Of a stretch of DNA of 22,950 bases, positions 1,193-2,152 are shown piece by piece. The stretch's first letter is position 1. Every line of letters begins with the position of its first letter. The position numbers were made by a program, and so were the translations under genes. The notes under the pieces were generated by a model, which was given only the letters and a program-made list of their open reading frames with translations, made no database searches and was not told the DNA's origin. The DNA comes from Escherichia coli (lineage in GTDB: Bacteria > Pseudomonadota > Gammaproteobacteria > Enterobacterales > Enterobacteriaceae), in the NCBI RefSeq assembly GCF_003334355.1, contig NZ_QOWP01000046.1; one strand, given 5' to 3'.

Positions 1193-2152
1193 ATGATAAA
1201 AAAACCTGTGATTGGGATCAGCGGTTGTTTGGGCGGTTCTGCTGTTCGTTTTGATGGTGGTCACAAAAGAGATGACTTTTTAATGGACAAATTAGTGGAA
1301 TGGGTAACATTCAGACCAGTATGTCCGGAAATGGCTATAGGGCTGCCAGTTCCGCGTCCTGCTCTACGACTTGTGCGCTCGAAGCAAGGAAATATACGGA
1401 TGTGTTTCAGCCACGACCAGAATGAGGATGTGACAGAGAGAATGACAGAGTTTAGTCGTTCTTATATGGACAAATTAAAGGATGTATCGGGGTTTGTGGT
1501 TTGTGCTAAATCTCCCAGCTGTGGCATGGAGCGCGTGCGTGTCTATGATGAAAATGGTAATCGAGGTCGTAAAGATGGAGTGGGACTATTTACGAGCACT
1601 TTGATGGAAAAGTTTTCCTGGCTACCGGTTGAAGAGGATGGGCGATTACATGATCCAGTGCTTCGTGAGAATTTTATTGAAAGAGTTTTTGCTTTGCATG
1701 AGCTCAATCACCTTTACAAGGAGAAATTATCAAGAAGAGAGTTATTAGCTTTTCATAGTCGTTATAAGCTTCAGTTGTTGGCGCATAGCCAGGCAGGCTA
1801 TAAAGATATGGGACCATTTGTGGCTGCAATACACGAGTGGGCGGACCTTGAATCATACTTTGAGGTGTATCGTGATAATCTGATGGCGATTCTCAGAAAA
1901 CCAGCATCACGTAAAAATCACACGAATGTGCTGATGCATATACAGGGGTATTTTAGTAATTACTTAAGTACACGCCAGCGTAAAGAGTTGAGCGAGGTTA
2001 TACTTAACTATCGCTTTGGCACATTGCCTCTTCTTGCGCCGTTGACTCTGCTGAAGCATTATCTGGGTGAGTATCCTAATGATTACTTGCTTACACAGAA
2101 TTACTTCGATCCCTATCCGGAAGAACTGGCTCTAAGACTGATGGTGAATTAA
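1193..2152 (+). CDS. DUF523 (TudS-like thiouracil desulfidase domain) fused to DUF1722 (YbgA-like)
   Basis: 319-aa ORF with a strong RBS (AAGGGGGAGG) ahead of ATG 1193. N-terminal cysteines in GISGCLGG, VCPEM and VVCAKSPSCG are positioned like TudS Fe-S cluster ligands; the C-terminal half resembles YbgA/DUF1722. Domain assignment is from memory, not a search. Confidence 0.7.
   Translation: MIKKPVIGISGCLGGSAVRFDGGHKRDDFLMDKLVEWVTFRPVCPEMAIGLPVPRPALRLVRSKQGNIRMCFSHDQNEDVTERMTEFSRSYMDKLKDVSGFVVCAKSPSCGMERVRVYDENGNRGRKDGVGLFTSTLMEKFSWLPVEEDGRLHDPVLRENFIERVFALHELNHLYKEKLSRRELLAFHSRYKLQLLAHSQAGYKDMGPFVAAIHEWADLESYFEVYRDNLMAILRKPASRKNHTNVLMHIQGYFSNYLSTRQRKELSEVILNYRFGTLPLLAPLTLLKHYLGEYPNDYLLTQNYFDPYPEELALRLMVN

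Follow-up and report, generated by a model that had tools for sequence, protein, structure and literature searches.

A predicted tRNA 4-thiouridine desulfidase gene, rudS, carried between Q and the lysis genes of a Qin-type prophage of Escherichia coli

We analysed a stretch of 22,950 nucleotides (nt) of Escherichia coli DNA (RefSeq assembly GCF_003334355.1, contig NZ_QOWP01000046.1; hereafter the window) that carries rudS, a gene for a protein of 319 amino acids (aa) in which a TudS-like domain is fused to a DUF1722 domain. The open reading frame (ORF) starts with ATG and runs uninterrupted through 319 codons to its stop, which is included in the interval given in Table 1. Pfam models were matched over their full lengths by both halves of the same polypeptide: PF04463 (2-thiour_desulf; 2-thiouracil desulfurase, DUF523 or TudS) at aa 7–149 with an E-value of 1.2e-39 (model positions 1–141 of 141) and PF08349 (DUF1722) at aa 192–309 with an E-value of 9.4e-40 (1–117 of 117). 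A preliminary description of this DNA had proposed a TudS-like iron-sulfur desulfidase domain joined to DUF1722 and had named a search with these two models as a check. Both models were found, and the TudS sequence, profile and fold matches described below agree with the proposal. The motifs quoted in that description, GISGCL, VCPEM and VVCAKSPSCG, lie at aa 8–13, 43–47 and 102–111, respectively, and the presence of these motifs and domains is far beyond chance. The protein also matched phrog_3275 over its full length (319/319), a family labelled 'unknown function' in PHROGs.

The catalytic domain was aligned with TudS in two ways. The crystal structure 6z92 was matched with an E-value of 8e-4 by the single sequence and of 3.7e-15 by a profile of 100 distant family members. 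Both alignments pair C12, C44 and C110 of the window protein with C10, C43 and C104 of TudS, and E46, R55, S107 and S109 with E45, R54, S101 and S103. In TudS the residues C10, C43 and C104 are the ligands of a [4Fe-4S] cluster, and E45, S101 and S103 are catalytic (PMC10611767). Among 100 family representatives with 34–56% identity, C12, C44, E46, R55, S107, P108, S109 and C110 are each at least 90% conserved, and the ligand and catalytic residues are invariant wherever they are covered in 63 phage and prophage copies. The predicted cluster ligands of the window protein, based on these alignments, are C12, C44 and C110. The three-cysteine pattern that had been likened to the TudS ligands holds for its motifs and for C12 and C44. 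In the third motif the ligand would be C110 because this residue pairs with the TudS ligand C104. The first cysteine of VVCAKSPSCG (C104 of the window protein) was considered as well and rejected, based on the TudS alignment and on its lack of conservation across the 100 representatives.

AlphaFold2, run on an alignment of 20 sequences, gave a model of moderate quality, with a mean predicted local distance difference test score (pLDDT) of 71.9 and a predicted template modelling score (pTM) of 0.72. The N-terminal domain of the model is alpha/beta, and the C-terminal domain is all-helical, with pLDDT values of 75–94 over aa ~155–280. In a fold search with this model the only meaningful matches in the PDB were TudS entries (probability 1.00, template modelling score 0.62–0.64 normalised to TudS), and the DUF1722 half returned no PDB fold match.

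The TudS-DUF1722 fusion has been named RudS and described as a tRNA 4-thiouridine (s4U) desulfidase (Jamontas et al., NAR 2024, PMC11417400). Six proteins were tested in that study, one of them being RudS_vir, gp66 of Escherichia phage 1H12. Upon overexpression in E. coli all tested RudS proteins, RudS_vir included, lowered the s4U content of tRNA, whereas stand-alone TudS did not (PMC11417400). RudS_KT of Pseudomonas putida KT2440 bound tRNA and desulfidated it in vitro, and its activity was abolished in the E51M, S111M, S113M and R60M mutants (PMC11417400). The DUF1722 domain of RudS contacts the tRNA anticodon arm, and overexpression of RudS_KT shortened the growth delay of E. coli under ultraviolet A (UVA) from ~105 to ~60 min (PMC11417400).

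The window protein and RudS_vir (H3V29_gp66, NC_049947) are both 319 aa long and 92% identical (97% similar) without gaps, and their DNA is 91.7% identical. None of the 26 substitutions in the window protein falls on a ligand or catalytic position, and Table 1 of the published study gives Cys12, Cys44 and Cys110 as the conserved cysteines of RudS_vir, the same positions as in the window protein (PMC11417400). RudS_KT (PP_0741), the biochemically characterised reference, has the same TudS-DUF1722 architecture. Its C17, C49, C114, E51, R60, S111 and S113 correspond to C12, C44, C110, E46, R55, S107 and S109, equivalents that we mapped by motif offset and via TudS. The tRNA-contact residues S243 and R244 of RudS_KT fall, by offset only, on S239 and R240 in 'PASRKNHTN'; in phage copies R240 is constant and position 239 is S or T. 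RudS_KT is chromosomal and belongs to a light-regulated phrB-litR operon, whereas neither a MerR/LitR nor a photolyase gene adjoins the window gene. The chromosomal RudS proteins of Citrobacter, Serratia, Klebsiella, Enterobacter and Salmonella, including RudS_ST/ORF319 of S. enterica LT2, also count 319 aa and are 70–76% identical to the window protein. In C. braakii the gene ends an operon that encodes, in this order, SnoaL, SDR, amine oxidase, DUF1365, cyclopropane-fatty-acid-synthase-like, DUF2878, an unknown 175-aa protein, DUF3833 and RudS. By analogy with these close relatives, for which activity on tRNA s4U, dependence on the Cys, Glu, Ser and Arg side chains and a smaller UVA growth delay have been shown, the same properties may be expected of the window protein.

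Two other names were weighed for this protein. TudS (DUF523, PDB 6Z92/6Z96) resembles it in the fold of the catalytic domain and in every ligand and catalytic residue, but is a single-domain protein of ~150–170 aa that acts on free bases and nucleotides (thiouracil, 4-thiouridine monophosphate (4-thio-UMP)), whereas the window protein adds DUF1722. We rejected a stand-alone TudS, as the protein has 319 aa with DUF1722 and the phenotype conferred by TudS was not obtained with RudS proteins. YbgA (b0707 of E. coli K-12) is a stand-alone DUF1722 protein, and aa 161–315 of the window protein match its model NF007549 with 189.1 bits. The PGAP name 'YbgA family protein' arises because the C-terminal half matches this model. 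We rejected YbgA as the identity of the protein since this score falls short of the curated cutoff (237) and only aa 161–315 are matched. YbgA itself has no TudS domain and no effect on s4U (PMC11417400).

The ratio of non-synonymous to synonymous substitution rates (dN/dS) of rudS was 0.14 against the allele of 1H12 and 0.24 against that of phage IdasGreatGrand, values limited to prophage and phage allele pairs; dS against the Citrobacter chromosomal copy was saturated. The gene is under purifying selection. Its G+C content is 0.43, compared with 0.54 in the chromosomal copy of C. braakii. On one E. coli contig we also observed a 403-aa protein (P0002) that matches RudS with 98% identity across 92% of the query and has an extra GGDEF domain (PF00990). 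It occurs a single time and is probably a deletion or assembly fusion.

The whole window is 99.8% identical to the genome of E. coli PSS-12, in which ynfB and ydfJ flank the matching segment; the Qin prophage occupies this site. The element that carries rudS is a lambdoid prophage of Qin type and is defective. We consider it defective because integrase, immunity and replication genes are absent from the PSS-12 copy, in which IS1 and IS1203 occupy the place of the early region while lysis, head and tail genes are kept. The left end of the window falls within this insertion sequence (IS) DNA: the coding sequence (CDS) of the IS1203 transposase ends at the equivalent of window position 24 in the 99.8%-identical genome, and other genomes match only from window position 79 on. 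NZ_AP027697 lists the adjoining remnant of Q as a pseudogene 'missing N-terminus', and relatives have the full Q of 378 nt. The promoter-like and terminator region after Q is kept in phages IdasGreatGrand and 1H12, and the terminator is identical in three aligned phage or prophage copies. Together with the terminator-like hairpin ahead of the holin gene, this region brackets a cargo of blc, rudS and an AraC-like gene (Table 1).

The cargo genes stand out by their base composition, with a G+C content of 0.44 for blc and 0.33 for the AraC-like gene, next to 0.43 for rudS, compared with 0.54–0.59 for the structural genes. By gene order and base composition, rudS is lambdoid cargo (a 'moron') in the slot between Q and the lysis genes. 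Deposited phages use the same slot, and it is here that Shiga toxin (Stx) phages carry stx. The order Q, blc on the opposite strand, rudS, AraC-like gene, holin, endolysin and Rz is shared with the RudS_vir locus of 1H12. However, phage 1H12 is intact and has the complete Q; the window holds a Qin-type remnant in which Q is cut by the IS1203 end. The phage cargo proposed in the preliminary description is therefore correct as to prophage location, with the qualification that the prophage is defective here (Q cut by an IS, early region absent in the 99.8%-identical genome).

Table 1. Features of the rudS locus in window coordinates, with the evidence for each.
Feature	Position	Strand	Evidence
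IS1203/IS629-type (IS3 family) insertion sequence end; its transposase gene starts here and runs off the left edge of the window	1–79	−	Comparison with 99.8%-identical genome
Q antiterminator 3′ remnant (QuuD-like, C-terminal ~80 aa)	81–320	+	phrog_79 'anti-termination protein Q-like', profile positions 77–151 only
pR′-like late promoter candidate, TTGCTG-N17-TAACAT	333–361	+	Sequence reading; assigned from position only
tR′-like intrinsic terminator between Q and cargo, 9-bp GC-rich stem and T run	419–450	+	Terminator scan
blc, outer-membrane lipocalin lipoprotein, divergent from rudS	476–1000	−	NF007786 Blc, 310 bits (cutoff 267); phrog_2809
Shine-Dalgarno-like purine-rich run GGGGGAGG	1183–1190	+	Sequence reading, 5′ of rudS ATG
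rudS, 319-aa TudS-DUF1722 fusion, predicted tRNA 4-thiouridine desulfidase	1193–2152	+	ORF, Pfam, RudS_vir identity, phrog_3275
TudS/DUF523 catalytic domain (aa 7–149)	1211–1639	+	PF04463, TudS 6z92 profile, fold match
Cys12 codon, predicted [4Fe-4S] ligand (TudS C10)	1226–1228	+	TudS alignments, conservation, PMC11417400 Table 1
Cys44-Pro45-Glu46, predicted second ligand (TudS C43) and catalytic Glu (TudS E45, RudS_KT E51)	1322–1330	+	Alignments, conservation, PMC11417400 mutagenesis, PMC10611767
Arg55 codon, equivalent of RudS_KT catalytic Arg60	1355–1357	+	Aligns with TudS R54; role from PMC11417400
Ser107-Pro108-Ser109-Cys110, two predicted catalytic serines and third ligand (TudS S101, S103, C104)	1511–1522	+	Alignments, conservation, PMC10611767
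DUF1722 domain (aa 192–309), all-helical, tRNA (anticodon-arm) binding module of RudS	1766–2119	+	PF08349; binding role from PMC11417400
AraC-family regulator (YdeO/GadX-like), G+C 0.33, third cargo gene	2559–3272	+	phrog_1450; start as annotated in matching genome
Terminator-like hairpin and T run, 3′ end of cargo module, just before holin	3341–3372	+	Terminator scan
Lysis cassette	3463–5080	+	ORFs, PHROGs, annotation of matching genome
Holin EssD	3463–3678	+	
YdfR-family ORF between holin and endolysin	3683–3997	+	
Endolysin	4053–4586	+	
Rz spanin	4583–5080	+	
Rz1-like lipoprotein ORF, lipobox LTSC, embedded out of frame in Rz	4758–5030	+	

The frequency of rudS in E. coli was higher than the literature suggests. 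E. coli has been stated to lack TudS and RudS homologues (PMC11417400). We found rudS in 1136 of 5426 complete E. coli genomes (~21%), on lambdoid prophages, and at least 80% of the gene is covered in 1064 of these 1136. A probe spanning Q, blc and rudS was covered to at least 80% in 1011 genomes. The exact protein of the window occurs on at least 1000 contigs, and 12 deposited coliphage genomes carry rudS. In the BL21(DE3) derivative E. coli Rosetta2-DE3 (NZ_CP083274; locus L008, 4873–5019) Q and blc are kept, and rudS is represented by its first 147 nt only, annotated as a pseudogene. The published statement is true for laboratory strains, but not for the species.

A scan of IMG/VR returned 60 RudS loci that form three groups. 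The first comprises 41 Escherichia loci with 91–100% identity to the window and the same module. The gene order given above for 1H12 recurs in most of those 41 loci that are long enough to show it, and two deposited phages have it as well. Two unrelated endolysin types are joined to this module, and therefore the module moves as a unit. The second group consists of six loci (L043–L048) from the Citrobacter freundii complex with 72% identity, in which RudS lies in the replication/nin region immediately before dinI. Here RudS (e.g. L044, 5001–6423) precedes a DinI homologue as well as RusA and Q, a slot that differs from that in E. coli. The third group, from Providencia and Proteus, has 56–59% identity, with RudS between Q, of two unrelated types, and the lysis genes. 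In a Providencia prophage (L051) RudS is the first gene past a promoter-plus-terminator pair that comes right after Q, and in Proteus we found no terminator between RudS, Blc and holin. RudS is thus carried by at least three prophage lineages (Escherichia, Providencia/Proteus and Citrobacter), two of them with the gene directly behind Q. Other cargo was seen in the same slot. In Proteus it holds defence-like genes, namely an OLD-TOPRIM ATPase with a UvrD-like helicase (Gabija-like; L069, 2030–4835) and an ATPase with a reverse transcriptase (L064, 52–3311), and in both Proteus and E. coli it also houses cold-shock, HSP20, PsiE and CMD-family genes.

Together with rudS, blc was present in 39 of the 41 IMG/VR loci of the Escherichia type. 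In Proteus prophages a Blc gene follows RudS immediately downstream on the same strand (L064, 5976–6485; L069–L071, 8021–8530). Compared with the window, the Proteus proteins are 53% (Blc) and 56% (RudS) identical. We considered that phage Blc could derive from the neighbours of RudS in Citrobacter (the unknown 175-aa protein and DUF3833), and rejected this at the sequence level, as BLASTP found no similarity. The AraC-like protein gave partial NCBIfam matches resembling YdeO, GadX and HilD, all under the curated cutoffs, and its gene is preceded by an AT-rich spacer of 400 bp with promoter-like sites. A LexA/SOS box near rudS was rejected: the sole near-match (1206–1221, one mismatch) lies inside the CDS, and the count over the whole window was not above chance. 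At E ≤ 0.01, none of RudS, Blc and the AraC-like protein had a hit in PADLOC-DB, and the defence or anti-defence activity suggested in the preliminary description is for this reason unsupported.

Very probably, the window gene encodes a RudS that acts by the published mechanism; homologues have been tested, and for this allele we infer the activity from its sequence. Such a RudS would be a monomer of two domains, with the [4Fe-4S] cluster of the TudS domain held by Cys12, Cys44 and Cys110 and with the fourth iron free to bind the sulfur of 4-thiouridine. Arg55, Ser107 and Ser109 would position Glu46 to activate a water molecule, and the sulfur would be replaced by oxygen, converting s4U8 of tRNA to U8. 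The helical C-terminal DUF1722 domain would grip the tRNA via its anticodon arm. Because DUF1722 holds tRNA, the substrate would be whole tRNA rather than free thiouracil. The predicted net effect is that the near-UV-sensitive s4U is erased from host tRNAs, and less photocrosslinking between s4U8 and C13 would lead to less growth delay and a smaller stringent response. In intact relatives rudS is expected to be transcribed under active Q, since it is located downstream of the late promoter and terminator. In the window, where Q is truncated by an IS, expression of rudS must use its own promoter or Q acting in trans. This mode of expression, like the benefit to phage or lysogen considered next, we infer.

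One plausible, though tentative, reading is lysogenic conversion, in which RudS and Blc serve as stress cargo in the lysogen. A low s4U level would then reduce growth arrest in sunlight or UVA, which would benefit the host and so the prophage. RudS overexpression shortens the UVA growth delay of E. coli, and chromosomal rudS genes are located in light-responsive operons (PMC11417400). The window rudS is intact though its prophage has lost Q and the early region, many genomes have identical copies, and dN/dS is 0.14–0.24. In addition, host-stress genes share the slot in Proteus and E. coli, and the pairing of RudS with Blc recurs at 56% and 53% identity. This reading has to contend with the lack of a promoter upstream of rudS, as the plus strand of the 192-bp spacer between blc and rudS contained no sigma-70 match of at least 9/12, and with costs observed in E. 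coli thiI mutants and RudS overexpressers, which grew more slowly after 3 h in the dark and had two tRNAs down about two-fold (PMC11417400). It is also possible, but more doubtful, that RudS acts in the lytic cycle. Made with the late operon after induction, it would de-thiolate tRNA and so keep the inducing UV or sunlight from stalling translation and raising guanosine tetraphosphate (ppGpp). In prophages of Escherichia, Providencia and Proteus, which have at least two unrelated Q types, both Q and a promoter-plus-terminator pair precede RudS. The direct position past the terminator in Providencia, the terminator-free stretch from RudS to holin in Proteus and the adjacency to the SOS-related dinI in Citrobacter prophages all point in this direction. 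Moreover, (p)ppGpp inhibits replication and lytic development of lambda and Stx phages (PMC4770323), and crosslinking of s4U by UVA triggers uncharged tRNA and ppGpp (PMC11417400). However, the Q-to-lysis slot is a general cargo hotspot, and for this reason the position alone may lack functional meaning. Late expression would leave a short time to de-modify a stable tRNA pool, and the E. coli cargo is separated from the holin gene by the terminator-like hairpin, with blc on the opposite strand. Lysogenic conversion and expression with the late operon are compatible with each other. As a broader proposal, which we put forward with reserve, temperate phages of Enterobacterales may have repeatedly recruited a tRNA s4U eraser, often with Blc, behind Q; by removing the near-UV sensor of the host in lysogens or at induction, it could uncouple phage production from the UVA-triggered arrest and stringent response.

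Two further explanations concern the substrate and the state of the gene, and we consider both improbable. That RudS mainly detoxifies or recycles free 4-thiouracil, 4-thio-UMP or 4-thio-UTP in the manner of TudS, instead of acting on tRNA, is very unlikely. The catalytic domain is a TudS homologue and TudS prefers 4-thio-UMP (PMC10611767), but DUF1722 confers tRNA binding, and tRNA s4U decreased with every tested RudS and not with TudS (PMC11417400). No RudS equalled TudS in the rescue of a uracil auxotroph (PMC11417400). The thiouracil desulfidase activity raised in the preliminary description stands only in part, as free thiouracil is at most a side substrate: no RudS supported growth on 2-thiouracil, and with RudS_vir growth on 4-thiouracil began only after a lag (PMC11417400). 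Its alternative suggestion, a role in tRNA thio-modification, is the one that experiments support, and it had already been published for the 92%-identical RudS_vir, which lowers tRNA s4U (PMC11417400). A silent passenger that is decaying in a defective prophage, without current function, is unlikely as well. Truncation of Q, loss of the early region and damaged copies elsewhere (an IS1 insertion in H1, the 147-nt stump in the BL21-derived strain) would fit such decay, but the ORF is intact with all catalytic residues present, the great majority of carriers (1064 of 1136) retain at least 80% of the gene, and dN/dS is well under 1. 

Several observations weigh against the explanation that we favour, a tRNA s4U desulfidase carried as cargo of this prophage. 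Q is truncated in the window, its N-terminus having been removed by the IS1203 end, and the spacer upstream of rudS lacks the sigma-70 match mentioned above. With its 26 substitutions the allele is not identical to the tested RudS_vir, which itself was somewhat less active on tRNA than its expression level predicts and ranked lower among the well-expressed orthologues (PMC11417400). The lag of RudS_vir on 4-thiouracil was the shortest of all RudS proteins, which points to some activity on free substrate, and the published RudS activity data derive entirely from overexpression (PMC11417400). Finally, the structure prediction suggested earlier for the geometry of the cluster site recovered the TudS fold, but pLDDT was below 50 at aa 16–27, 48–50 and 111–123, the loops around the cluster.

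The molecular function of RudS is not new, because characterisation of this enzyme class has been published, including tests of a phage orthologue with 92% identity. In the literature on RudS desulfidase and phage, or on DUF1722 and prophage, we found no published study of the role of RudS in phage biology, and literature on 4-thiouridine, prophage induction and near-UV contained no mention of prophage induction among the matches listed. Three of our observations appear not to be in print: the presence of rudS in ~21% of complete E. coli genomes, the existence of at least three RudS-carrying prophage lineages, two of them with RudS directly behind Q, and the pairing of RudS with Blc, seen in prophages of Escherichia as well as of Proteus. 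The recurrence of RudS behind Q in Escherichia, Providencia and Proteus and beside dinI in Citrobacter suggests selection for a phage-linked role. Since 1136 of 5426 genomes carry a prophage rudS, the tRNA s4U level and the UVA response may vary among natural isolates of E. coli with their prophage content. If the proposed role is true, RudS would be a viral 'epitranscriptome editor', and apparently the first phage-encoded eraser of a tRNA modification with a defined role in the life cycle.

Rfam and tRNA scans of the window found no tRNA genes and, as the only RNA element, a cspA thermoregulator far downstream of rudS. This cspA-type RNA thermoregulator (Rfam RF01766, 114 bits) lies at 5297–5681, upstream of cspI. 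It is followed at about 5400–7100 by the usual low-GC cargo of Qin, which comprises ynfQ, ynfR, ynfN (frameshifted in the matching genome), gnsB, ydfO and ynfO.

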